Below are positions 3,941-60,156 of a stretch of DNA of 64,000 nucleotides, piece by piece; position 1 is the first letter of the stretch; each line of letters starts with the position of its first letter. The translations under genes were made by a program, and so were the position numbers. The DNA lies in NCBI GenBank assembly GCA_047947115.1, contig CP170459.1:3328001-3392000 (forward strand). Reading direction: 5' to 3'. A model generated the notes under the pieces. The model searched no databases. It was not told the origin of the DNA and worked only from the letters and a program-made list of their open reading frames with translations. The DNA comes from Verrucomicrobiota bacterium (lineage in GTDB: Bacteria; Verrucomicrobiota; Verrucomicrobiia; Limisphaerales; AAA164-E04).

Positions 3941-3973
3941 TAAAAGGCCGGTTTCCCAAGGGAAACCGGCCTT
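3941..3973 (-). terminator. Rho-independent terminator of the large repeat-protein gene
   Basis: Perfect stem AAGGCCGGTTTCC (3944-3956) / GGAAACCGGCCTT (3961-3973), 4-nt loop, ending in TTTT on the minus strand, ~25 nt after the stop at 3997. Confidence 0.85.
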
Positions 3974-3996: not shown

Positions 3997-6900
3997 TTAC
4001 TGAGCAATAAAGAATCGGTTGCCGTCTCCGATCTCGATGCTTGAGCTGGGCGGTGTAGCGCCTGCTACGGGAGTGAACGGCCCGGTGACCGTTGAGGATT
4101 CCAGTAACTGGTTGCCTGTCCATTCGATGACCAGATTGCCTTCCTGAACGGAGAAGCTGCTGATCTCGGCCGCTGCGACAAATGGGACGGATCCACCTTT
4201 GATCACGGCATTGTCGAAGTTACCAATAGTCTGGTTGCCCTGGATTTCACCTGTTTCCGGATCAGCGCCACCCACATTGTCAGCATAGGCACCGATGCCA
4301 AACTGCAATCCGCTGGAGAACGGGAAGTCAATTTCGACTCCGAACACGTCATCCAGGAACAATTTGGCGGTGGCACCGTTCAGGGTGATTTTCATCCGAT
4401 GATCGCCTCCATTATCAAAAGGAGGTCCATCGAAGGCGGGAATGTTGACACCGATGCCGGTCGCATCGTCGTCCGGAGCGCCCGTTACCTTGTTGTAGTG
4501 CCAGCCGTAGTTGCGTCCATCATGGGTGGTGTAATCGTTGAACAGGATGAAGTTTCCATTTCCATCGCGAACCCACAGACCGGTTCTTGATTCCGAACCG
4601 GTTCCTTCTTCAAGCACGAAGTCGACATTGGATCGGTCGATTTCGAAGGTCAGCGGTTCCGCAGAACTTGCGGAATAACTGTCGACCGTGAAGATGGCAA
4701 TACCCGGCCACAGTGCTTGTTCCACTTCCACATGAATAACCACTTCACCGTTTTCGAAACGAATTTCGGATTCGGGAGCAGGTTTCAGGATGCCGCTTGG
4801 GTCGAAGGGGGTTTCGTCCACTGTCCATTTGCTGCCGTCCAACGATGCCCCGGAGAAATCATCGGTGAGGAACGTTTCCGGCACCGACACAATCTCCACG
4901 CTGACGGAACCATCCACACAGGCGCCAGCGTCATTCGTGGCGGTGAACGATGCAGAACCGAGCCCGACGGCGGAAACACCCACTGTTTGCTTGTTGGATG
5001 AACCAGCAGGGAAGGTCAAGGTGAGCGATCCGTTTGAAGCCCCTGCAGGAACCGCGACGGCAGGATTGTTACTGGTCAGGGTGACTGATACATCCGCCGA
5101 ATCGTTCAGCAGGCGAGGCACCGTGACAGTGATTTCGCCTCGCTCGGCCAGTGTGAGCAACACATTTGACGGAGACAGGTCGATGCACGGAATCACGTTT
5201 TCGATTTTGACGTTGTCAAAAAGTCCGATCACATCATCGTCCGCATTCTGTGCATAAGCGCCCAGTTCAACGTGAATGCCGGCGCTGACTTCGAAGGCAA
5301 ATTCACCGCCGGAAACACCATCCACAAAGACTTCGACGGTGCTGCCGTTTGCCACGAGTTTCAACTGGTGTTCCCCAAAGTCCTCGAAAGGAGCAAATGC
5401 GGCGATAATCGTGCCTCCTCCGGTAGGTGAACCGGGATTGGTGTTCACTCGCCACGCGGCATTGTTGGCGTCATCCAGTTCCTGTGACAGGAAAACGAAT
5501 CGGGAGCGATCGTCGTTGGTGAGGAATACACCGGTTCGACCGGCGGTTCCGAATTGATCAATGGAAACTCGATCCACTTCAACAACGAGGTTCAGATCTT
5601 CCGTTGCGAGATAGGAATCCACTGTCTTCAGCGAAGCACCCGCCCAGTTGGCCGTATCGACGATGCCTTCGATCTGTATTTGACCACCCGAGGCTTCCAC
5701 GGTGAAACTGCCGCTGCCATTACCGAAGGGTTCTTCGGAGATCTGCCAATTTGAGCCATCAATGGAACCGGCGAAATCGTCTTCCAAGACCACACCTGGG
5801 TCGGAAATGACCGCGACACTCAGGCGATTGCCGCCTGCGATGTCACCCTGGAGACTGAACTCAGTTCCACCAAGACTCACGCCTGAAATGCGGAACGTTT
5901 GTGAGTTGTCGCCTCCGGCAGGGAAGGTCAAGGTGAGTTTGCCGCCTGTTCCGCCTTCCGGTGTGGCGATGCCTGGATCGGCGCTCACGACTGTCACGGA
6001 CACGGCTCTTTGGGAGTTTAATCCTTGAGGAATGCGGACAGAAACAGGCTGGCTGGTTCCGCCTTCACGAACCCCGATGCCTCCGGGTGAGAACGTTGCT
6101 CCCCCTTCGCTCTCGATGACCAGGTTGTCCCAAACAACATTGGCATTGTCGTTGTTGGCACGTGCATAAGCACCGAAGTGGAAAACAACTGGTGAAAAAG
6201 GGAAGGGAACTTCAGCTCCTTCGACTCCATCCAGAAGCAGTTTCACTGTTTGGCCGTTGGCCACCATGCTCATGTTGTGCAGTCCCGTGTCGCCATCCAA
6301 TGAATCGAAGGCTGCAATGTTCGCTCCACCGCCGGTCGGGGTATCGCCTTCCTGCCCGATTTTTCGGTTGAATTGCCATCCGTTTTCCCCCGCATTTTGG
6401 GCAAAGAGAACATAATTGGATTGAGATTCATCAAGGATCCATAAGGCACTACGCGTGGCAGTGCCGACATCTTCTACCGATACGCGGTCGATGGAAATGG
6501 TGATTTTTTCCGAATCGGAAGGAGCAAATGTCGGAACGATCTGCAAGGTGCCACCTGACCACCATTGTTGGGTCGTTGTGCCAACGAATCGCATCACTCC
6601 ATCGCCAGGTTCTCCACGAATATCACCTACACCGCCTTCGAAGAACGGGGAACCGGCGACGTATTTAGCGGGATTGATGTCATTTGATTCGAAGTCATCG
6701 GAGAAAACAATGTTGCTTTGTTGGGGCACTCCGACGATTTCCAAATTGTCCCAGGTAACGTTTGCCTGATCATTATTAGCCCGAGCATATGCTCCGAAAT
6801 GGAAGACCACGGGAGAAAACGGGAATGGAACTTCGGCTCCTTCTTCGCCGTCGAGGAGGAGTTTTACGGTGGAACCGTTTGCTACAATGCTCATGCGATG

Positions 6901-8094
6901 CAGTCCAAGGTCCCCGTCCAACGAATCAAATGCCGCGATGTTGGAGCCTCCACCGGTAGGGTTGTCCCCGGCCTGGCCTATTTTTCGATTGAACTGCCAG
7001 CCGTTTTCACCTGCATTTTGAGCAAATAGCACATAATTGGTTTCTGATTCGTCAAGAATCCATAGTGCGCTGCGAGCAGCTGTTCCCACATCGGTGACCT
7101 CCACCCGGTCAATGGAAGCAGTCACAGGAGCATCCTGGGTGGGGGCGAATGTTTCTTTGATGCGAAGCGTGCCGCCTGACCACCATTGTTGAGTGGTGGT
7201 GCCTGTGAAGCGCATGACCCCGTTTCCAGCTTCCGCATGGATGTCGCCTACACCACCTTCGAAGAAGGGTGCTGCAGGTTCAAATTTAGCTGCATCAATC
7301 GAATCTGATTCAAAGTCGTCCTCAAAAAGAGTGGTGGTTCTGACCACGGTTTCAATGGTTAGATTATCCCAGGTCACATTCGCGGCGTCATTGTTCGCTC
7401 GTGCGTAGGCGCCGAAATGGAAGACCACGGGAGAAAACGGGAATGGAACTTCGGCCCCTTCTTCGCCGTCGAGGAGGAGTTTCACGGTGGAACCGTTTGC
7501 CACAATGCTCATGCGATGGAGTCCGAGATCACCGTCCAGCGAGTCAAACGCAACGATATTGGAGCCCCCACCGGTGGGATTGTCCCCGGCTTGGCCTATT
7601 TTTCGATTGTATTGCCAGCCGTTTTCTCCGGCATTTTGAGCAAAGAGCACGTAGTTGGTTTCCGATTCATCAAGAATCCAGAGCGCGCTTCGCTCGGCAG
7701 TTCCGACGTCTGCTATTTCAACTCGGTCGATACTTGCTGTTACCGGAGTGTCAGGTGTGGCATCGAACGTTTCCTTGATTCGGAGTGTTCCACCTGACCA
7801 CCACTGCTGGGTGGTGGTGCCGACAAATCGCATGACACCATCTCCCGCTTCCGCGTGAATGTCTCCTACACCACCCTCAAAAAAGGGGGAAGCCTCCTCG
7901 AATTTGGAGCTGTCAATGGTGTTCGATTCGAAGTCGTCCTGGAAGACAACCGTGGATACTTGTGCGTTTGCTTTCTGGATTTGACCGACAAATCCAACCC
8001 ATAGTGCACACACAAGTGCGAAACTGAGCTTGCCGTGATGCCGCCAGAAGGCGTTTTCACGCAGCTCATTCATGTGGTTTGCTTTTATGTCCAT
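3997..8094 (-). CDS. Large secreted acidic protein: five copies of a ~206-aa beta-rich (possibly ConA/LamG-like) domain, two Ig/Calx-beta-like linkers and a short C-terminal domain
   Basis: Signal peptide (KLSFALVCALWVGFVGQIQKANA-Q). Repeats start xxDDF and end W/FDNxxI. Two linkers share LTLTFPAG. Start ATG 8094 or 8073 rather than 8178. Confidence 0.9.
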   Translation of the reverse strand: MDIKANHMNELRENAFWRHHGKLSFALVCALWVGFVGQIQKANAQVSTVVFQDDFESNTIDSSKFEEASPFFEGGVGDIHAEAGDGVMRFVGTTTQQWWSGGTLRIKETFDATPDTPVTASIDRVEIADVGTAERSALWILDESETNYVLFAQNAGENGWQYNRKIGQAGDNPTGGGSNIVAFDSLDGDLGLHRMSIVANGSTVKLLLDGEEGAEVPFPFSPVVFHFGAYARANNDAANVTWDNLTIETVVRTTTLFEDDFESDSIDAAKFEPAAPFFEGGVGDIHAEAGNGVMRFTGTTTQQWWSGGTLRIKETFAPTQDAPVTASIDRVEVTDVGTAARSALWILDESETNYVLFAQNAGENGWQFNRKIGQAGDNPTGGGSNIAAFDSLDGDLGLHRMSIVANGSTVKLLLDGEEGAEVPFPFSPVVFHFGAYARANNDQANVTWDNLEIVGVPQQSNIVFSDDFESNDINPAKYVAGSPFFEGGVGDIRGEPGDGVMRFVGTTTQQWWSGGTLQIVPTFAPSDSEKITISIDRVSVEDVGTATRSALWILDESQSNYVLFAQNAGENGWQFNRKIGQEGDTPTGGGANIAAFDSLDGDTGLHNMSMVANGQTVKLLLDGVEGAEVPFPFSPVVFHFGAYARANNDNANVVWDNLVIESEGGATFSPGGIGVREGGTSQPVSVRIPQGLNSQRAVSVTVVSADPGIATPEGGTGGKLTLTFPAGGDNSQTFRISGVSLGGTEFSLQGDIAGGNRLSVAVISDPGVVLEDDFAGSIDGSNWQISEEPFGNGSGSFTVEASGGQIQIEGIVDTANWAGASLKTVDSYLATEDLNLVVEVDRVSIDQFGTAGRTGVFLTNDDRSRFVFLSQELDDANNAAWRVNTNPGSPTGGGTIIAAFAPFEDFGEHQLKLVANGSTVEVFVDGVSGGEFAFEVSAGIHVELGAYAQNADDDVIGLFDNVKIENVIPCIDLSPSNVLLTLAERGEITVTVPRLLNDSADVSVTLTSNNPAVAVPAGASNGSLTLTFPAGSSNKQTVGVSAVGLGSASFTATNDAGACVDGSVSVEIVSVPETFLTDDFSGASLDGSKWTVDETPFDPSGILKPAPESEIRFENGEVVIHVEVEQALWPGIAIFTVDSYSASSAEPLTFEIDRSNVDFVLEEGTGSESRTGLWVRDGNGNFILFNDYTTHDGRNYGWHYNKVTGAPDDDATGIGVNIPAFDGPPFDNGGDHRMKITLNGATAKLFLDDVFGVEIDFPFSSGLQFGIGAYADNVGGADPETGEIQGNQTIGNFDNAVIKGGSVPFVAAAEISSFSVQEGNLVIEWTGNQLLESSTVTGPFTPVAGATPPSSSIEIGDGNRFFIAQ
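6110..7950 (-). repeat. Three near-identical intragenic tandem repeats (periods 618 and 621 nt)
   Basis: The first Phe codon of FxDDFES lies at 7944, 7326 and 6705. PFFEGGVGDI, GTTTQQWWSGGTL and VPFPFSPVVFHFGAYARANND occur in all three copies. Confidence 0.95.
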
Positions 8095-8519
8095 GTGTTT
8101 GTTTAGATTAAGGTTGTGCGCCGGTTGGTACACAACCACCTTTTTGGGGCACAATTCACCCCGGTTAATGGTTAGCACATTGCTGTTTATGTTCTGGAAT
8201 CGGACAGATTTACTCAGAAAAGGCTGAGCTTGTCAAATTTTCCTTACACAACAAATCAAGCTCAATCGAGCGCCTTCAGAGCATTCCGTGGCAGAGGTTC
8301 CCTCTGCCGGGGGATTGGGCTATCGCTTTCCAAAAGCGCTTCCAAATCATCGCCGCGTTGAGTGGTTTTTGTGTGTTTTCCGGCCGCCTTACTGGATGAG
8401 TTAAACAGCAACATCCCAGATTGATAGAGTTTCATGGATAATGTTTGCATTATATCAAAGACTCCACAGGTTTTTTTCGAAATGCCATTCCAACAATTCT
8501 TCCGATGCATCAGTTGATG

Positions 8520-15660: not shown

Positions 15661-18600
15661 TTACCTGGTTTGTTTTAACTGCATGACATCGCTGCGCCGG
15701 TTTTGAAAGAAAACCCTGTAAAAGTAGTTGTTCATGTTTGTGTCCGGGTTGTTGCTTTGGGATTCCTCGAACATCCAGGCTTCCATGCGGCTGTCGGGTT
15801 CATACGTAAATGACACCAGTTGGTCGAGGTATTGAGTGAGTCTGGGGAAATTGTAAGGCTGATTGACCCAATCCTTGAATTGTTGGGAGCCTCCATAGAA
15901 TCCGTTGTAGGGTCTTGTGCCAAAGGATAGGTCGGCATCCCATTGCAGAAACTGGAAACGATGATCGTTTGGACGCCGATAGAAGTAGGCGTTCTTTCCG
16001 CGCGACTGGGTGAATGTGTCCCAATCGGCAATGAAACCCAATACCGCCGTCATTTTCAGTATGGCCTCCGAATCGAGAATGGCTTCCACTTTGTCCTGAG
16101 TGTAGTCGGGCCGGTTGATCAACTGAATGAAATCGATGAACGCCGTGTAATCGTCATCTTCCTCTCGGGAACGTTTCATCCAGGAATGTCGATAATGGGC
16201 GGGATGGTCCGGGCCGAAATTGTGCCAGCTAGCGTCCCTGGGCTGTTGTGACCAGTGGTCCGACATCCACCAATCGTCGTCAACGCGGTAGAGTTCCCCC
16301 TCGTTGCCGTTTTTGAAGTTTCGGTTGAGATAGTCGGAATCCACGGGTTCAACGTCTTCTCTCACATGAATCCCTCCTGCATTGATGATGACATAAACGA
16401 ACTCGTTTTGACCGCTGACATGTCCCAAAAGGTAGAGCCGATACCGTGCAATGCGATTGTGGTGGCGATAGGCGCCTCCGTTGCGGGTGGGATCGTTGTC
16501 GAATGCAAATTTTCCGTGGTCGCGGAATCGTCGGTCATTCGGGAGTTTCCATTTGCCTCGATCCATGCTGTTTCGGCGTGTCCAGGGACTGCCGCTTGGT
16601 CTCAGAACGGCACCTGTATAGATATCCCGTTCGTTGGAGATGAAAGTTGCATTGAAGTATTGGTTGGAAAGTCGAGGGTAACGGAATCCGTATGCCTCGC
16701 TTTGCTCCCGGTAAATGGCGTTCAGATGGTTGTTGGAAATCAACAAGCGCACCACTCGCAGATCTGAAGGGATAGGGCGGCCGTCAAACACGCACAAGGC
16801 CGGGGCGGCAGCAGCGCCTCTTGGCAAGGTGGTGCGCGGTCCTTTGGTAGGGATGGTTTCGATGTAATACTGGATTAATTCACCTTGCTGGTATGTGTTT
16901 TCCAACTGGATTTGATAAGTGGTGAGTGCTGTTGAAGATGGGCTGCCAGGTGCCAACGGTGACATGGGGGCCCGTTTCCACGGTTCCTTGTAATCACCAT
17001 CCAACCGATAAACCAGATTCACCAAGCCGGGTTCGCGGTGCCATCCAATGTCAGCCTCAATGGTCAAAGTTTCTCCGGGTGCGGGGACGGCCGGAGATTG
17101 ACGGAGTGCTTCCACCAGAGCAGGTGGATCGAGGTGCCACCTGGAATTTTGCTTGCCGGGTGTGCCGATGTCTACGGGGACCGAAAGGAGAATGGATTCT
17201 GAAAGGCTGTTCTCCCAGGTTCGGGCGATGAGCCTTGGGGAGCCATGCACCCAGCGGGCTTCAAAGGACAGTTCGTAATCGGTGTTGCGCTTCAGTTCGG
17301 TGATGTCTATCTCTGCGCGGTTGGCCCGGTTGTCCCCGTGACCGTTGGAAATGAGGTGAAGACGTCCGTTCTCCACGTAACTGTCCGCATGATTGCCCTG
17401 GATCAACCAACCGGTGGAACCGTCGCCTTCAATGGACAGCCGATCCGGATGTTCCAACAGGTTTTTGGAACTTCCTTTTTCCCGTAGTTGAATGTTTTGC
17501 AGGATGACATGACTCTCCCCGACCAGATACAAGTGCAATTCCTGATGATCCATGGGATGCCAGTATTGCTCATGTGCGAAATAACGGTTGGAGAAGGAAA
17601 AAGACTGGAACTCGGTGGTGCGGGATTCGCGGCTGTCTTTCCATGCGGAAGAATGGACGTTGTCCATATATGGATTGATCAACTCCATGCTGCTGCCTTT
17701 GCCTTGTGCCAGAGTGGGCCAGTCGCCTTCGGTTTGATAATCGATTTCGTCGGCGAGGTTGCCCTGAGCGTCGAGGAGCGTGATGTGTTCTCCATCATTG
17801 CTCAATTTTCCTTTCATCGGTCCGAGCGCGTTTAGATCCGGATGAGCGGTGTTCAATGCCTCAGGGTGATCTGCGATCACCAGGAACCCCCCAGGCTCTA
17901 TGGAAGTGCCTTCCGGAAATGTGTATTCAATTCCGCCGGCGAGTTTCCATCCATGCAAATCGATTGCCCGATCGCCGCGGTTGAATAGTTCGATGAATTC
18001 AAGATCCGGCTGGCCATAGGGTGGGTCATACATGATTTCGTTGATGACCACGTCCTCGCTGCGTTGGATGATGTTCGGCTGGTTCCGGGTATTGTCGATG
18101 GTCGTAAACCATTGCTTGCCTCCATCCGGGAACCGTTGGATGGAGGCATTATCCGGGACACTCAGTTTCTGTGCGTCCATGACAAGACCGGTGTTGCGAT
18201 GGATCAGAAAGATGCGAAATGTTTGGTCAGACGTTTTTTCCATCGTCAACTTGAAGGTGGCAAAACTGAACGGGGAAAGAGCCCCTTGGATCGGTAATGC
18301 GTTTTGAAATTTCGTTCCCATCGAAAGAGCCAGCTCATCGAGTTGCAAGATTCGGTCCGTATTGTTGAATAATTCAATGTCCAGAGTGTCGGAATGCCTT
18401 CGAGTGATCTCATTGAGGAAGATTTCTCCTCGTGCTGCTATTCCGCTTTCCGGGAAAGGAGCCGCTCCCGGTGTGCCTCCCGGGTGCTTGCTCGCTTTCC
18501 AGTTGCGCCCATCATTGATGCGGCGATCAGGGTGGCGAACCACCATGCTGTAACCGGCTCCGGCTGCCTCAATCGGCCAGGGAGGATCGTTGTCGAATTC

Positions 18601-19104
18601 GATTTCGCACAGCACGATGCCGTTCTTGTCGGATAGTTGCAGGCGCTCTTTTTTATGGTTCAATGTTCCCGTCCATGGCCCCCAGATGCGTGTGTGCGGG
18701 GGGATGGTATGAGCTTTTCGGAATGTTTCCGGTTCAGATTCGGTAAGGATGATCTGTTCAAAGGGACGGATAAAACTTGCGCGGGGCTCTTGGCGATCAA
18801 AGTCCGGAAAGGTGAATGTCAGGTCCCTGCCTTTTAATTCCCATTGAGCACAATCCATGGGGGTCGCAGTCAGGTTGGTGATCTCCACCCAGGCGGCTGC
18901 TTTCTCGTCCTGCGGGTGATACATGATTTCCGTGAAAATGACCTGATCCGCCATGAGGAGACCATTGGGCGTCAGGGCGCAACAAAGGAGCAGGCAAACA
19001 AGAAAGTTCCTTCCCGCCTTGTATGGACAACTTTGGCCGCTTCGTGTCATGTGCGTTTTCCTCCGGGGTCCTGCTCCATCCTGAAAACAGCGATTGGCCT
19101 CCAT
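15661..19104 (-). CDS. Secreted lamin-tail-domain protein with C-terminal CotH-family kinase domain
   Basis: LTD starts (FTEIMYHP, FLNEI, INEIMYDP...EFIELFN); CotH-like DWD...GKNAYFY and FLQWDADLSFG. Start 19104 or 19050. Confidence 0.85.
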   Translation of the reverse strand: MEANRCFQDGAGPRRKTHMTRSGQSCPYKAGRNFLVCLLLCCALTPNGLLMADQVIFTEIMYHPQDEKAAAWVEITNLTATPMDCAQWELKGRDLTFTFPDFDRQEPRASFIRPFEQIILTESEPETFRKAHTIPPHTRIWGPWTGTLNHKKERLQLSDKNGIVLCEIEFDNDPPWPIEAAGAGYSMVVRHPDRRINDGRNWKASKHPGGTPGAAPFPESGIAARGEIFLNEITRRHSDTLDIELFNNTDRILQLDELALSMGTKFQNALPIQGALSPFSFATFKLTMEKTSDQTFRIFLIHRNTGLVMDAQKLSVPDNASIQRFPDGGKQWFTTIDNTRNQPNIIQRSEDVVINEIMYDPPYGQPDLEFIELFNRGDRAIDLHGWKLAGGIEYTFPEGTSIEPGGFLVIADHPEALNTAHPDLNALGPMKGKLSNDGEHITLLDAQGNLADEIDYQTEGDWPTLAQGKGSSMELINPYMDNVHSSAWKDSRESRTTEFQSFSFSNRYFAHEQYWHPMDHQELHLYLVGESHVILQNIQLREKGSSKNLLEHPDRLSIEGDGSTGWLIQGNHADSYVENGRLHLISNGHGDNRANRAEIDITELKRNTDYELSFEARWVHGSPRLIARTWENSLSESILLSVPVDIGTPGKQNSRWHLDPPALVEALRQSPAVPAPGETLTIEADIGWHREPGLVNLVYRLDGDYKEPWKRAPMSPLAPGSPSSTALTTYQIQLENTYQQGELIQYYIETIPTKGPRTTLPRGAAAAPALCVFDGRPIPSDLRVVRLLISNNHLNAIYREQSEAYGFRYPRLSNQYFNATFISNERDIYTGAVLRPSGSPWTRRNSMDRGKWKLPNDRRFRDHGKFAFDNDPTRNGGAYRHHNRIARYRLYLLGHVSGQNEFVYVIINAGGIHVREDVEPVDSDYLNRNFKNGNEGELYRVDDDWWMSDHWSQQPRDASWHNFGPDHPAHYRHSWMKRSREEDDDYTAFIDFIQLINRPDYTQDKVEAILDSEAILKMTAVLGFIADWDTFTQSRGKNAYFYRRPNDHRFQFLQWDADLSFGTRPYNGFYGGSQQFKDWVNQPYNFPRLTQYLDQLVSFTYEPDSRMEAWMFEESQSNNPDTNMNNYFYRVFFQNRRSDVMQLKQTR

Positions 19105-54241: not shown

Positions 54242-54384
54242 AAGAACCATAGTGAATTTGAATAAGGGATCGGGCTGTTCAGTAAAAAAATGCCACCCCG
54301 GCATCGCCCATCCGCCACTCTGAATTCATTATGTCAACTCACGTTTTTTGCCAACGGAGGAGGGTAGCCCATGAAGGAGTCATT

Positions 54385-57300
54385 ATGAGACATTTTTCTA
54401 TCATCAATATTTGTGCAATCCTTCTGTTGTTTGAGGGCTGGGGTGTGCTTGCGGATACCGAGGTGCCTGTCGTCAGCTCGGTCGATCCACAACCGGGTTT
54501 GGTGGAGAAGTTCGATGAAGTGACTATTCGGTTTTCGGAGCCGGTCCGTGGAGTGGATCGGGGGGATCTTGTCTTGAATGGCAATTCTGCCGTTCGAATG
54601 TCGGGTAGTGGGGATACTTATCGTTTTACCTTTGCAGGCACCCAGGCACGTGAACTCACACTTCGTTGGCAGCAGGATCCGGGCATCGAAGATCTGGCAT
54701 CGCCACCCAATGTGTTCGACTGGCAGGCGGCTTCAGAAATCAGAGTGTATCAATTACTGGATCAGAATGCCCCTTATGTCACTCAGATCTTTCCGCGTCC
54801 TGGTCAGCGGCTTTCTTCATTTTCCAAGGTGGAAGTGTTTTTTTTGGAGCCCGTTTTTGGGTTGGATGCCCTGGATTTGTTGGTCAATGGCGCGCCTGCT
54901 GAATCACTGAGTGGAGCAGGGGCGGGTCCTTATGTGTTCGAGTTTCCCGCTCAATCAAATGGTGGGCTGCGCCTGACTTGGCGTGAGGATCATGGAGTGG
55001 AGGATGACGCCCCTGAACCGAATGCTTTTCAACCTGGAGAGTGGCGTTATGAAGTTGATCCCAATGTACGCTATAAGGGGGTCGAAATCACCGAGATGCT
55101 GGCGGGAAATCAGAGTGGATTGATGGATGATGATCGGGATCACGTGGATTGGATTGAGTTGCACAACACAACCGATACTAAAGTGGACTTGACGGGGTGG
55201 TCCTTATCGGACGATCCGGATCAGCCGGGGAAGTGGGTGTTTGATGGATTACTCATCGGACCGGACGATTATTTGATTGTGTTCGCTTCTTCCAAGGATC
55301 GTCCCAACAGGCGGACAGGATTCTCCCCACATACGAATTTCAGTTTGAGTCGAGCTGGTGAGTTTCTTGGTTTGTATAGTCCGGAAATGCCTCGCCGGCT
55401 GGTGAGTGATTTGGGAGATCGCTATCCGGTCCAGCGCAATGATCATTCCTACGGTCGGCTGGACGACGGCACGTTTGCTTATTTTTCTTCGCCGACTCCG
55501 GGACGAGATAACGAGGGACCCTCGATAACGGAAATTTTACCGGAACCGCATTTCAGCGCATCAAGAGGCTATTACGATCGTGCTTTTCAGCTTGTTTTGT
55601 CCACTCCCGTGGATGGGGCGGTGGTCCGTTTTACGTTGGACCAGTCGGAACCCACAATGGAAAATGGTGTTACCTACGAGTCTCCCATTGAACTCAGTCG
55701 TACCTCCACCGTACGTGCGGCGGTTTTCAAAACAGGACTCCTTCCCTCCAAAACAGAAACGCATACTTATCTCTTCAGGATGAGCCGATCCAGGCGTGCA
55801 TTTCCGGTTCTTTCACTGGTTACCGATGAGGAGCATTTGTGGGGACGGCAGGGGATCATGGAAACAAGACCCCGCAATACCACCAAGCGTGGGCGGTCCT
55901 GGGAACGGCCGGTGTCAGTCGAGTATTTTCTACCGGATGGTTCCACCGGGTTTCAGATCGATGCTGGTCTGCGTATCCAGGGAGGGAATTATGTAAGGGA
56001 ACGGTATGATCCAAATGGGGGACTGCCTTTTCGAAAGTATTCTTTCCGATTGTATTTCCGAGGCGATTACGGAGAGTCGACGTTGAACTACCCGCTGATA
56101 CCCCGTTCACCCGCTCATTCGTACAAGCAAATTGTTTTGCGCGCGGGAATGAATGATCATTCCAATCCGTTTGTGGTGGATGAATTGGTGCGGCGACTTT
56201 CGGCAGATATGGGGCAGGTTTCCAGTCAGGGCACGTTGGTTCACCTCTACATCAACGGAGTTTACAAGGGATATTACAATCCGACCGAACGCATAGACGA
56301 AGACTTTCTCGACACCTGGCAAGGGGGCAACGGTGAATATGATATCATCGCGCAGTTCGGTGAGGTCAGGTCCGGGGATACGTTGGAATGGAATCGACTC
56401 AAGACGGCGATGAACCGTGATTTGTCTGTGGCTTCCAATTACCGGACAGCGGGCCAGTTGCTGGATATCGACAGTTTTATCGATTATTTGATCCTCAATA
56501 TCTATACCGGGACCCGCGATTGGCCCCATAACAACTGGCGTGCCGCCAGGGAACGAGTCGATGGAGCCCGTTGGCGGTTTTATGTTTGGGATGCAGAGTG
56601 GTCCTTTTTTAATGCCGGTGGAGATGTTCGCCATAATACGCTGACGACGGAACTGGTGGTTGAGCAGGACATCGCACGCTTCTACCAGTCACTTGCAAAG
56701 AACAGCGATTTTCGAGTGCGTTTTGCAGACCGCGTCCATCAACATTTTTTCGGCAATGGAGCGCTGACCGATGAACATATACTCAAGCGTTACGAGGAAT
56801 TAAGGGATGGTATCGCAGGGGTGGTCAGGATCACTGACACGATCGCAACCAGTTGGATTCCTCAACGCCGTAACATTGTTCTGGAGCAGCTTGCCGAGCA
56901 GGGTTTGTTCCTTGCTGACAATGTGCCGCAATTTTCAGCGCCGCCAGGTGGTGTGCGTGATGGACAGGTCAGTTTATCTGCTGATGGCGAGCAGATTTAT
57001 TACACACTCGACGGCTCTGATCCTTTTCTGCCCGAAAGTTCGTCTGGAAATCATCTGCCATTGGTGACCGGGCGAGCGACCAAATATGTGCATGTGCCGA
57101 TTGATGGAACCATCCGAAGTTCCTGGCGGTCGAATGTTACCGATTTTGACGATTCGGACTGGCTGCGGGGACGGGGCGGAGTGGGATTTGATCGGGCGCA
57201 GACTTACGATGCTCATATCAGAATCGATGTGGGGGATGAGATGATTGGGAAAAGTACGTCCGTCTACGTCCGCATTCCTTTCAATGTTCGGATGCGGGAC

Positions 57301-60156
57301 ATTGAACATCTGAATGTCATGAATTTGCTCATGAAATATGACGACGGATTTACAGCGTTTTTGAACGGTCGACGCATTGCGGACGCCAACGCTCCAACTT
57401 CGCTTCGCTGGAATTCAGTCGCAAATTCTGAACATGCCGATTCTGAGGCGATTGAATATCAAGTGTTCAATGTGACGAGTCAGATGAATCTGCTTCGTGA
57501 CGGTGCCAATTTATTGGCCATCCACGGAGTGAATGTCAGTCTGCGCAGTTCGGACTTTCTGATCGACGCTTTGCTGGAAGCTGGAATATTGGAGTCAGGA
57601 AAACCGTCGCCGGAAGCGTTGGTGTATCGTTCGCCGATTGTTGTGGATGGTCTTGTTGACATTAAGGCCCGCAGCCTGACGAATGGAAAATGGAGCGCCT
57701 TGAGCCATGGGGTTTTCTATCCCGGTAATTTGACCCCGTTGATCAAGTGGACCGAGGTAATGTATCATCCCCCGGGAGGTGATGCCTTCGAGTTTGTCGA
57801 GTTAACGAATTTCAGTCCGGTGGCCTACGATTTATCCGGTCACCATTTAAGGGGAGTGTCCTATGATTTTGTTCCCGGCACCCGGCTGGATCCAGGCGCT
57901 TCGATGGTGCTGGCTTCCAATGAAAACCCCGTTGCTTTTCAATCGAGATATCCCGAAGTCAGTGTCGGGGGGCACTTTGGCGGTAATTTGTCGAACAGCG
58001 GGGAATGGCTTTCGCTCGAGGATGGCTCTGGTAATTTTGTTACCGGCGTGCGGTATGATGACAAGGGGGTATGGTCCAAAGAGGCTGATGGGAAAGGATA
58101 CAGTCTGGTATTGAGGCATGCATCGGGTGATCCCTCCGTTCCGGCCGATTGGAGTCGATCCAGCATCCCGGGCGGCAGTCCCTCAGTATTCCAATCAGGA
58201 GTTCAGATGGAGGGTGTGGCGCTGAGTGAGATAGTCGCTGCGATGGGCGAACCGACAACAGTCGATCAACCGGAGGGAGATTGGATCGAACTGGAAAATC
58301 GGGGGACGACTCCAGTTGATTTGATCGGGTATCGAATGATCGATGAAACCGGTCGATCCGAATATGTGTTCGAAAACGATCGCATCCTGCGTCCCGGAGA
58401 GCGTCTGCTGATTTCTCAACAGATTCCGGATGGGGGTGGAACCGGTTTTCCTTTTGGACTAGATCGGGATGGGGATTCAGTGGTGTTGTTGAATGATTTC
58501 GGAGAGGTGGTCGATTCCGTGTCATTCGGCCGCCAGGTGCCTGGGTTTTCATTGATTCAAGGCAAAGCGGGCCAGTGGTTGCTTGGTGTGCCCACACCCG
58601 GCGCTTCCAATTTGCCGGCATCGACCGCACCTCTCTCGGCTCTGCGGATCAATGAGTTGATGGCAGCACCTTTGGCGGGGCAGGGTGATTGGGTGGAATT
58701 GTTCAATTCACATGGGGAACTTCCGGTGGATCTAAGCGGATTGCATTTTCGATTCAATGATCACACGGTAAGCAATACCCCCAATGCGTTCGTTGAACCG
58801 CATGGCCATATACTTTACGAGTCTTCCTCGTCCAGCTTGCAGGGCACCCTTCGCTTTAAACTTCCTTCGCAGGGGGGAACATTAGCTTTGTTGGATGACC
58901 AGGGAGTATCGGTGGATCAAGTTGAGTATCGGGAGCACCAGGAAGGGGAATGGTTTGGGCGTTTTCCTGATGGAAATGGCAGGTTCAGAAGTTTGTCGGG
59001 CATACCAAGTCCCGGCGCGCCGAATGCCAGAGAATTGCCATCGAGTCTGGTGATCAACGAACTGATGGCCAGGAACCGGTCCATTCCGTATGAGGGGATG
59101 AAAGGAACTCCTGATTGGATCGAGTTAAAGAATGTGACCGGCGATTTGCTTCCATTGGGTGGGATGAAGTTGCGTTTAAATGGGAGTGACGTGTGGGTTT
59201 TTCCCGATGGTTACCATCTGGAAGCGGGGGAATACCTGGTGGTATGGGGCGGTAGCTCCGAATGGGGGAATGACGTCGGGCCTGGTAAGTTTTACATGGA
59301 GACTTCTCTTGAAGGATCCGGGGGGCTTCTTGAGCTGCTGAATACACAGGGGCAGGTGATGGATCGGATCCAATATGGTATTCAGATTGCAGATCAATCG
59401 ATCGGACGTGGAGGGGATCAATGGGAACTGCTTTCCCTTCCCACCCCAGGGCAAGCCAATGAAGTTCCATCGATTTTGGGAGATGTGAATCAACTTCGTT
59501 TCAATGAATGGATGGCAGGTGGCGAGGGGGATGATTGGCTGGAACTATACAATATCGGGGATGCGCCGATTGCTCTTGGAGGGGTGTTCTTAACGGATGA
59601 TCCTTCGTTGAATGGAACAACCAAACATGCCATGGCAGCCTTGAGCTTTATAGCGCCTCATGGACATGTGGCGCTATGGGCGGACAATAACCCGGGTAAA
59701 GGGCCGGATCATTTGAATTTCAGCCTCTCCAATCAGGGAGAAACTTTGAGGATGTATGCTTCCAATTTTACAATGATTGATGAAGTGCTGGTGACCGGAA
59801 ATCTTTTTCAACCCGGGTCCAACGGTCGCCTGCCGGACGGATCGGATTTCTTTACTTTTTTTACGACGGATGAAGCCACTCGAGGGTTGCCAAACAGAAG
59901 CGGAGCGACCGGTCACATAGTTCAACATCTCATCCGATCCATTTCCCTTTCGGAGGATGGCCTCATTCTGGAGGTAGCCACCGAAAAGGGTCAGAAGTAC
60001 CGCCTGCAAGCCATCGATGACCTGTCATCCGATCATTGGATCGATCGACAATTTTTTGATGGAACGGGCGAACTGGTTCGCCTGGTGGATGAGTTCTCGT
60101 TGGGGAAAACCCGGTTTTTCAGGGTGCTTGTGGCTGGGCAATCGTCGTTTCCTTGA
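54385..60156 (+). CDS. Giant secreted protein: two Ig-like repeats, LTD, FN3-associated/chitobiase-like domain, CotH kinase, beta-sandwich, about five more LTDs, C-terminal domain
   Basis: Signal peptide; repeated I(N/T/S)E.(M/V)A...DWIEL.N...PTPG LTD units; FTLDQSEPT and YTLDGSDP; CotH RDWPHNNW...WDAEWSF. Confidence 0.9.
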   Translation: MRHFSIINICAILLLFEGWGVLADTEVPVVSSVDPQPGLVEKFDEVTIRFSEPVRGVDRGDLVLNGNSAVRMSGSGDTYRFTFAGTQARELTLRWQQDPGIEDLASPPNVFDWQAASEIRVYQLLDQNAPYVTQIFPRPGQRLSSFSKVEVFFLEPVFGLDALDLLVNGAPAESLSGAGAGPYVFEFPAQSNGGLRLTWREDHGVEDDAPEPNAFQPGEWRYEVDPNVRYKGVEITEMLAGNQSGLMDDDRDHVDWIELHNTTDTKVDLTGWSLSDDPDQPGKWVFDGLLIGPDDYLIVFASSKDRPNRRTGFSPHTNFSLSRAGEFLGLYSPEMPRRLVSDLGDRYPVQRNDHSYGRLDDGTFAYFSSPTPGRDNEGPSITEILPEPHFSASRGYYDRAFQLVLSTPVDGAVVRFTLDQSEPTMENGVTYESPIELSRTSTVRAAVFKTGLLPSKTETHTYLFRMSRSRRAFPVLSLVTDEEHLWGRQGIMETRPRNTTKRGRSWERPVSVEYFLPDGSTGFQIDAGLRIQGGNYVRERYDPNGGLPFRKYSFRLYFRGDYGESTLNYPLIPRSPAHSYKQIVLRAGMNDHSNPFVVDELVRRLSADMGQVSSQGTLVHLYINGVYKGYYNPTERIDEDFLDTWQGGNGEYDIIAQFGEVRSGDTLEWNRLKTAMNRDLSVASNYRTAGQLLDIDSFIDYLILNIYTGTRDWPHNNWRAARERVDGARWRFYVWDAEWSFFNAGGDVRHNTLTTELVVEQDIARFYQSLAKNSDFRVRFADRVHQHFFGNGALTDEHILKRYEELRDGIAGVVRITDTIATSWIPQRRNIVLEQLAEQGLFLADNVPQFSAPPGGVRDGQVSLSADGEQIYYTLDGSDPFLPESSSGNHLPLVTGRATKYVHVPIDGTIRSSWRSNVTDFDDSDWLRGRGGVGFDRAQTYDAHIRIDVGDEMIGKSTSVYVRIPFNVRMRDIEHLNVMNLLMKYDDGFTAFLNGRRIADANAPTSLRWNSVANSEHADSEAIEYQVFNVTSQMNLLRDGANLLAIHGVNVSLRSSDFLIDALLEAGILESGKPSPEALVYRSPIVVDGLVDIKARSLTNGKWSALSHGVFYPGNLTPLIKWTEVMYHPPGGDAFEFVELTNFSPVAYDLSGHHLRGVSYDFVPGTRLDPGASMVLASNENPVAFQSRYPEVSVGGHFGGNLSNSGEWLSLEDGSGNFVTGVRYDDKGVWSKEADGKGYSLVLRHASGDPSVPADWSRSSIPGGSPSVFQSGVQMEGVALSEIVAAMGEPTTVDQPEGDWIELENRGTTPVDLIGYRMIDETGRSEYVFENDRILRPGERLLISQQIPDGGGTGFPFGLDRDGDSVVLLNDFGEVVDSVSFGRQVPGFSLIQGKAGQWLLGVPTPGASNLPASTAPLSALRINELMAAPLAGQGDWVELFNSHGELPVDLSGLHFRFNDHTVSNTPNAFVEPHGHILYESSSSSLQGTLRFKLPSQGGTLALLDDQGVSVDQVEYREHQEGEWFGRFPDGNGRFRSLSGIPSPGAPNARELPSSLVINELMARNRSIPYEGMKGTPDWIELKNVTGDLLPLGGMKLRLNGSDVWVFPDGYHLEAGEYLVVWGGSSEWGNDVGPGKFYMETSLEGSGGLLELLNTQGQVMDRIQYGIQIADQSIGRGGDQWELLSLPTPGQANEVPSILGDVNQLRFNEWMAGGEGDDWLELYNIGDAPIALGGVFLTDDPSLNGTTKHAMAALSFIAPHGHVALWADNNPGKGPDHLNFSLSNQGETLRMYASNFTMIDEVLVTGNLFQPGSNGRLPDGSDFFTFFTTDEATRGLPNRSGATGHIVQHLIRSISLSEDGLILEVATEKGQKYRLQAIDDLSSDHWIDRQFFDGTGELVRLVDEFSLGKTRFFRVLVAGQSSFP

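Follow-up and report, generated by a model that had tools for sequence, protein, structure and literature searches.

An uncatalogued terminal domain on exported proteins of Verrucomicrobiota with a putative role in sorting or anchoring

Two large exported proteins and their C-terminal tails

The window is a stretch of 64,000 nucleotides (G000:C1:3328001-3392000) from a Verrucomicrobiota genome, G000, which is a single contig of 6.08 Mb and is 95.8% complete. Two long open reading frames (ORFs) of the window, cargo 1 and cargo 2, end in the domain discussed here, and their features are the following (window coordinates).

3997..8178, minus strand: cargo 1, ORF of a 1393-residue repeat protein with the short form of the domain at its end; no Pfam match
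7963..8094, minus strand: residues 29-72 of cargo 1 (A-N-A, then Q), predicted as a Sec signal peptide from inspection and a rough hydropathy rule
4000..4179, minus strand: terminal domain, short form (tail 1), residues 1334-1393 (HMM E 4.2e-8; pLDDT 92.6)
54385..60156, plus strand: cargo 2, protein with six LTD stretches, CotH and Fn3_assoc, 1923 residues from Met19 (Pfam scan, homologues)
54385..54453, plus strand: residues 19-41 of cargo 2, predicted as a Sec signal peptide from inspection and a rough hydropathy rule
56029..56823, plus strand: CotH kinase domain of cargo 2, residues 567-831 (PF08757, E 9e-21)
59920..60126, plus strand: terminal domain, long form (tail 2), residues 1864-1932 (HMM E 7e-9; pLDDT 91.8, six strands)

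Cargo 1 likely starts at Met29 (8094), where its ESM Atlas entry also begins, and its translated ORF ends in ISSFSVQEGNLVIEW...GNRFFIAQ, with the stop codon directly after the last residue of tail 1. The ORF of cargo 2 (54331-60156, plus strand; Met19 at 54385) ends in IRSISLSEDGLILEV...KTRFFRVLVAGQSSFP, and nine residues separate the end of tail 2 from the stop. The Pfam scan adds CHB_HEX_C to the domains of cargo 2 and has no match in either tail, while the named homologues of cargo 2 belong to Verrucomicrobiota. A preliminary description of this DNA had quoted the two tails, which are indeed found in both ORFs, and had credited both proteins with Sec signal peptides, which agrees with what is predicted by eye, namely an h-region followed by A-x-A or V-L-A.

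Just after cargo 1 lies a terminator-like element (3944-3973), in which a perfect GC-rich inverted repeat precedes a T run on the minus strand. The window also encodes a second LTD-bearing protein of 1147 residues (15661-19104, minus strand) without the domain, and a solitary N-methyl pilin-like gene (TIGR02532; 46082-46804, minus strand), which is 7.5 kb from cargo 2 and not adjacent to it; about 80 genes of this kind are present in G000.

The two tails belong to one domain family

Direct comparison of tail 1 with tail 2 by BLASTP stays at chance level (E 0.73), hence the pair alone is no proof of kinship. An iterated HMM with tail 1 as its single seed collects 37 copies at E<0.001; when continued at E<0.01 on all 17,594 ORFs of G000 and their reversed decoys, it reaches 131 copies and no decoys after 15 rounds, still gaining one or two per round. 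Tail 2 is picked up at iteration 10 (E 1.3e-4; final E 7e-9). As a check on drift, one profile was built from 37 short forms including tail 1 and another from 81 long forms including tail 2, with no member in common; the two align over 51 columns (profile-profile probability 97.3%, E 2.6e-11). Tail 1 matches the HMM of its own subfamily at E 2.7e-17 and is missed by an HMM built from the long forms alone, so that its link to tail 2 runs through intermediates. Judged by these profiles, tail 1 and tail 2 are copies of one domain family.

The family signature reads h-x-[WF], Y-x-L-[EQ]-x-[SA]-x-[DS]-L, W (78%) and F (82%)-[FY]-R (73%). The marks proposed earlier fare less well: the literal motif shared by the two tails occurs, genome-wide, in these two proteins only and is thus not a family signature, and the near-terminal RFF is found in 11 of the 131 copies as against 87 with [FY][FY]R. 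The underlying idea of a shared C-terminal element survives in that the element is common to many unrelated exported proteins, but it is a folded domain and not a short motif.

Position of the domain and the proteins that carry it

The 131 copies detected in G000 are distributed over 125 proteins, of which 113 carry the domain at the C-terminus only, eight near the N-terminus, inside their first 110 residues (mostly right behind the signal peptide), three internally and one as a tandem array. The expected C-terminal position therefore holds for the large group of 113 and fails for the eight near the N-terminus. Among proteins of at least 300 residues, a crude hydropathy rule finds an N-terminal hydrophobic stretch in 88 of 110 carriers; for the other ORFs, among which are also shadow ORFs and membrane proteins, the count is 1310 of 2771. 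Transmembrane segments are nearly absent from the carriers, and 17 of the 32 ORFs of at least 1500 residues with an N-terminal hydrophobic stretch are carriers. Cargo families include CotH/LTD, S8, LamG, GH16, GH5, GH25, PA14 and CHRD.

The terminal position recurs in other genomes. The domain ends 105 of 120 cargo 2 homologues, with no internal match in any, and about five of the 15 homologues missed by the HMM show the tail by eye. A terminal domain is also present in 29 of 29 loci of G011 and G217 (30 of 65 matches were examined, the other one being from G071), in 47 of 49 database matches (the window's own protein left out) and in all 45 GTDB loci with an HMM match, out of 48. As for the GTDB loci with a short-form tail, 42 of 48 are titled Verrucomicrobiota, including Pedosphaera and Limisphaerales. 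A search of the whole library returns up to 38,969 clusters at E<=0.001, which is an upper bound. Among the best 150 of these, a sample that favours multi-copy proteins, 84 have a terminal array only, 21 combine a terminal copy with others upstream, 28 lack a complete copy at the end and 17 show only partial repeats, and many resemble ordinary FN3 or CBM repeat proteins.

Two proteins of G000 show extremes of copy number. One is an S8 protease of 3021 residues with seven to eight tandem C-terminal copies, encoded directly downstream of a pilin-like gene cassette (L048:1356-19033; G000 476355-494032), whose G011 homologue has seven copies. The other is an ORF of 131 residues that has only the domain besides its signal peptide (G000:C1 5097987-5098382).

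The tandem arrays (seven copies in G000 and G011) and the spaced internal copies (21 of the best 150) are more than a one-time address needs. They suggest avidity, as would be expected of a non-covalent surface anchor, that is, a module which after export binds a surface glycan, LPS, an S-layer or a scaffold protein and thereby holds enzymes and adhesins at the cell surface. Dockerin, SLH and choline-binding modules are analogues of such anchors in other systems. This explanation, which we regard as possible though on balance unlikely, also agrees with the occurrence of the domain at either terminus, with the conserved surface-type W (78%) and R (73%), and with the carriers, in which no transmembrane anchor or convincing lipobox was found. 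On the other hand, an unsystematic look brought up no scaffold protein with repeats of a partner domain and no linked glycan locus, and the domain trades places with a true secretion signal on homologous enzymes. Five GH16 proteins that end in the domain are 33-40% identical in their GH16 part (E 1e-34 to 1e-44) to P0160, a GH16 protein that ends in a type IX secretion system (T9SS) domain scoring above the TIGR04183 cut-off. Tail swapping of this kind is one of the marks used to define GlyGly-CTERM, according to PMC3237569.

Predicted fold and status in the libraries

The domain comprises 60-75 residues and is predicted by AlphaFold2 to form six strands in a fibronectin-III-like arrangement. 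Six strands are obtained for tail 2 from an alignment of 42 sequences and the same strand order for tail 1 from 30 sequences (for the pLDDT see the feature list); the two alignments overlap, hence the agreement between the models is partly by construction. The long form matches FN3 domains with Z up to 7.4 and rmsd of 2.3-3.0 over 65-73 residues, many of the matches being tied, and the short form matches FN3-type folds with Z only up to 4.9; Foldseek gives no match at E<=0.001. The matches span about the first 75 residues of FN3 chains of 90-100 residues (2kbg 2-78/102, 3mpc 3-77/96, 1oww 2-76/93) and thus end about 15-25 residues short of the FN3 chain ends, whereas the chain of the domain ends at strand six. 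Since the match ranges stop early, strand G appears to be missing, and the model predicts a domain that lacks the last FN3 strand.

The sequence libraries searched do not describe the family. For 42 members no relevant family was found in Pfam, NCBIfam, PADLOC or PHROGs, and none of the 42 matches Pfam fn3 (PF00041). F5/8 type C (CBM32) gives weak partial matches in five of the 42 (best E 1.7e-4), which explain some false positives; an identity with F5/8 type C was rejected because no match is full-length and the fold searches point to FN3. The PDB sequence search has only partial CBM32/lectin matches, the viral fold library has no match at E<=0.001, and the ESM Atlas holds only unnamed Verrucomicrobiota clusters, with no named match. 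Literature searches, whose scope left most subscription journals outside, found no description of the domain.

An ordinary degenerate FN3 module, which would cap, space or stabilise large extracellular proteins and have no sorting role, is compatible with the FN3-like predicted fold, with the low conservation (22% mean column identity in the domain alignment) and with a profile that shades off into F5/8-C repeats and canonical FN3 ones, a complete terminal copy being absent from 45 of the best 150 library matches. Nevertheless, usual FN3 repeats are not limited to chain ends, and 104 of the 113 terminal copies in G000 end within seven residues of the stop. The single copy per protein across more than 100 unrelated cargos and the absence of Pfam fn3 matches also speak against it, which makes this alternative improbable.

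Distribution in the order and the phylum

Within the order, 19 of 20 relatives have the domain, with 24-147 matches each, and in the phylum it is found in 94 of 200 genomes. The per-genome copy counts of the phylum survey are lower bounds (28 means at least 28), and the HMM is biased to its own order and misses diverged tails. Accordingly read, eight CotH loci from 'domain-free' genomes include one that ends in a copy at E 2e-5 and one at E 0.35; two others have what by eye resemble diverged copies, one ends in a different module and three are short types without a tail. The different module ends a CotH/LTD protein of 1715 residues in G065, a member of a domain-free family (L189:2842-7986). 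It is presumably typical of Opitutaceae, its motif was not found in G000, and it is possible that it represents a second lineage-specific tail.

The preliminary description had foreseen a lineage-specific terminal module, and the range of the domain together with its absence from Pfam and NCBIfam bears this out. The family is neither rare nor cytoplasmic, its two forms share a predicted fold, and no secretion system has already been assigned to it. It is a real, uncatalogued, phylum-wide terminal domain of a portable sorting or anchoring type, its role being putative.

Pilin and secretin genes in the neighbourhood

In G000, 16 of the 125 carriers have an N-methyl pilin-like gene no more than 1 kb away, where 3.5 are expected and none of 2000 shifts reaches this number; a looser shift test, in which shifted genes may overlap, gives p 0.026. 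Exported non-carriers are found at this distance in 69 of 1442 cases (Fisher p 7e-4 against the carriers). In G011 the number is 6 of 34 carriers with 1.1 expected, as determined from estimated gene starts, and at least one pair is orthologous to G000, while G217 has 0 of 25. This company of pilins and secretins is a further point against the surface anchor.

Three carriers lie between a pilM-secretin operon and coaE in G000, and the arrangement is kept in G009, G011, G018 and G019.

L042:1368-19006 (G000 5784867-5802505): order-specific operon with pilM, two pilN/O/P-like genes, secretin, carrier (638 residues), unknown protein (491 residues), carrier (943 residues), S8 protease carrier and coaE-like gene

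A conserved, domain-bearing S8 protease inside a secretin operon is what a signal for an undescribed outer-membrane translocon or sortase-like system might have beside it, that is, for a T9SS analogue separate from type II secretion (T2SS). The many-to-one pattern and the interchange with the T9SS domain fit such a system, and T9SS parts were not found in G000: TIGR04183 has no match there (nor in the controls of that scan, though the model matches P0160 over cut-off), PorV (PF19572) has none, with a positive control in 1 of 14, and SprA (PF14349) has none, as in the controls. However, the operon of this protease did not turn up beyond the order (0 of 5, and one weak match in 200), and the operon genes were consequently rejected as general machinery, being restricted to the order. 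The N-terminal copies argue against cleavage and reattachment at the C-terminus, and T2SS-family genes are present in every domain-rich genome tested. We therefore consider this explanation the least probable of those weighed here.

More widely, the proximity of secretins to carriers in G000, with 2 of 9 within 1 kb, is not persuasive, and 3 of 14 T2SS loci hold a carrier.

Type II secretion genes in domain-bearing genomes

G000 has eight secretin loci, two canonical gsp clusters, a dispersed gsp set and the pilM-secretin operon. The cluster at 5.05-5.06 Mb contains gspE, F, G, minor pseudopilins, K and D (TIGR02517 over cut-off) and amounts to a complete T2SS, the second cluster is at 2.37 Mb, and the dispersed set is made up of gspF-H-I-J-K and gspE-L-M-D.

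The 2.37-Mb cluster encodes its secretin in two pieces (L043:639-3394; G000 2365138-2367893), ORFs of 508 residues (TIGR02517 positions 1-333) and 394 residues (positions 281-599) that both have a signal peptide of their own. Secretin-domain frames of 399 and 446 residues in G009 and G011 suggest that the split may be conserved. Between gspJ and gspK the same cluster is broken (L043:7390-9283) by an ORF of 223 residues and a transposase-like ORF of 419 residues, which we take to be ISL3-like.

In the phylum, GspG was detected in 171 of 200 genomes, including 93 of the 94 that bear the domain and 68 of 68 with at least three copies, and a further 78 genomes have GspG without a detected domain. 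The sole GspG-less genome with the domain, G071, has a non-terminal match that resembles an F5/8-C domain. This nesting is confounded, since CotH, a typical cargo, is likewise lost without GspG: none of the 37 genomes in which GspG is weak or missing has it, and these genomes span only eight families. The nesting would also be expected of a surface anchor if its cargo uses T2SS. Two other markers were set aside, GspD N0 (PF21305) being less sensitive (145 of 201) and left out of the counts, and many matches of PF03934 (GspK) being frames of 750-1270 residues that are not GspK. The nesting is further blurred by G014 (90% complete), which has 53 copies and the same dispersed gsp set, with only a weak GspG match and no GspD-N0 match.

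G020, of the same order, has neither the domain nor GspG yet keeps the gspF-H-I-J-K and gspE-L-M-D clusters, and for this reason a clean joint loss of the domain and T2SS was rejected for it. Its secretin-operon protein is cut off by the contig end at the place where the domain would start. The CotH protein of G020 has no tail, whereas four of four homologues in G015, G018 and G019 end in the domain; as evidence this was discarded, because the protein is 200-1000 residues shorter and G020 keeps T2SS. A CotH/LTD gene of G000 is apparently split by a 22-kb element (G000:C1 4516576-4538803), which we take to contain an integrase-like gene and type I-E Cas-like genes, and its two parts correspond to successive stretches of a single G020 protein.

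The preliminary description had looked to a new dedicated machinery, which finds no counterpart in the loci compared: 14 T2SS loci of domain-rich genomes and 11 of domain-poor ones have canonical gene sets, with no accessory gene special to the former. The lack of a dedicated export gene at these loci would also suit a surface anchor. Taken together, the evidence, all of it indirect, speaks more for a known machine of the type II secretion family than for a new one.

A possible address tag for type II secretion

The explanation that we favour, tentatively, is that the domain is a portable address tag which hands Sec-exported cargo to a T2SS (secretin/pseudopilus) machine. The carriers are large soluble proteins with Sec peptides and no membrane anchor in a genome where no T9SS was found, so the simplest exit would be a secretin. 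An address tag fits a module that stands once per protein at the chain end, swaps with the T9SS domain, appears confined to genomes with T2SS and is encoded beside pseudopilins. The cargo would cross the inner membrane by Sec and fold in the periplasm, and the tag, exposed at the chain end, would be bound by a T2SS component. Candidate receptors are GspC, the N-domains of GspD, the pseudopilins of the tip and, for this order, a solitary pseudopilin encoded together with the cargo. The missing strand would leave an open edge beside the conserved F-[FY]-R strand and thereby offer a possible route of receptor binding, perhaps by strand addition. The cargo would then leave via the secretin, and no cleavage is implied.

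A more specific version, which has to be called doubtful as a whole, is that Verrucomicrobiota possess a portable T2SS signal domain in the form of an incomplete FN3 that is completed by a strand of the T2SS receptor, acts at either end of the chain, is present on half of the giant exoproteins and, in this order, uses solitary pseudopilins as adaptors. A surface anchor would account for the arrays, the N-terminal copies and the nesting with T2SS almost equally well, and signal and anchor roles are not mutually exclusive.

How T2SS chooses folded cargo is a long-open question because the known signals are scattered loops, as set out in PMC7949064. If the address-tag explanation is true, a discrete domain on about a hundred cargos per genome would open T2SS recognition to direct tests with fusions and deletions. 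Irrespective of its function, the domain flags the enzymes and adhesins exported by an abundant phylum of polysaccharide degraders, a set that Pfam and NCBIfam leave unannotated.

Comparison with known systems

With FN3 (PF00041) the domain shares strand order and fold (best Z 6-7.4), and it differs in the apparently missing last strand, the lack of a PF00041 match and the terminal position. A precedent for an FN3 module with T2SS signals is the Fn3 module of PelI/Pel3 (PDB 3b8y, 4u49), to which the predicted fold is similar (Z 6.9, rmsd 2.3 over 65 residues; TMq 0.66). The Pel3 match ties with generic FN3 domains and is absent from the top 50 of the short form. The PelI/Pel3 module is likewise an FN3 module at the chain end and carries T2SS recognition loops, and in PMC7949064 these signals of Pel3 are variable loops and not a portable domain. 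The module has seven strands, shows 6-13% identity, belongs to one enzyme family only and is not sufficient alone, whereas the domain described here is six-stranded and common to more than 100 cargos.

PEP-CTERM, GlyGly-CTERM and LPXTG resemble the domain as many-to-one terminal tags of sporadic range that are subject to tail swapping, and GlyGly-CTERM moreover nests within the wider range of T2SS (PMC3237569). In contrast, the domain is folded and without the motif, transmembrane helix and basic tail, none of which was found in the sequences or the alignment; no cognate sortase was identified and no CTERM model matches.

The T9SS type A C-terminal domain is similar in its length of about 70 residues, its all-beta structure and its C-terminal place on many unrelated Sec-exported proteins, and it occupies the place of the domain on homologous GH16 enzymes. 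It differs in that there is no sequence match (TIGR04183 and PF18962 match none of 42 members) and no PorV was found, and in that the domain here also occurs N-terminally and in arrays. The earlier statement that the tails match neither T9SS nor PEP-CTERM models is thus upheld. The T9SS domain has a seven-stranded, Ig-like fold of the RgpB/PorZ type, while six strands are predicted for the domain here; no T9SS-domain chain is among the 50 fold matches listed, which does not exclude a T9SS fold. If the more specific version with a portable T2SS signal domain is true, this domain would be to T2SS what the C-terminal domain is to T9SS.
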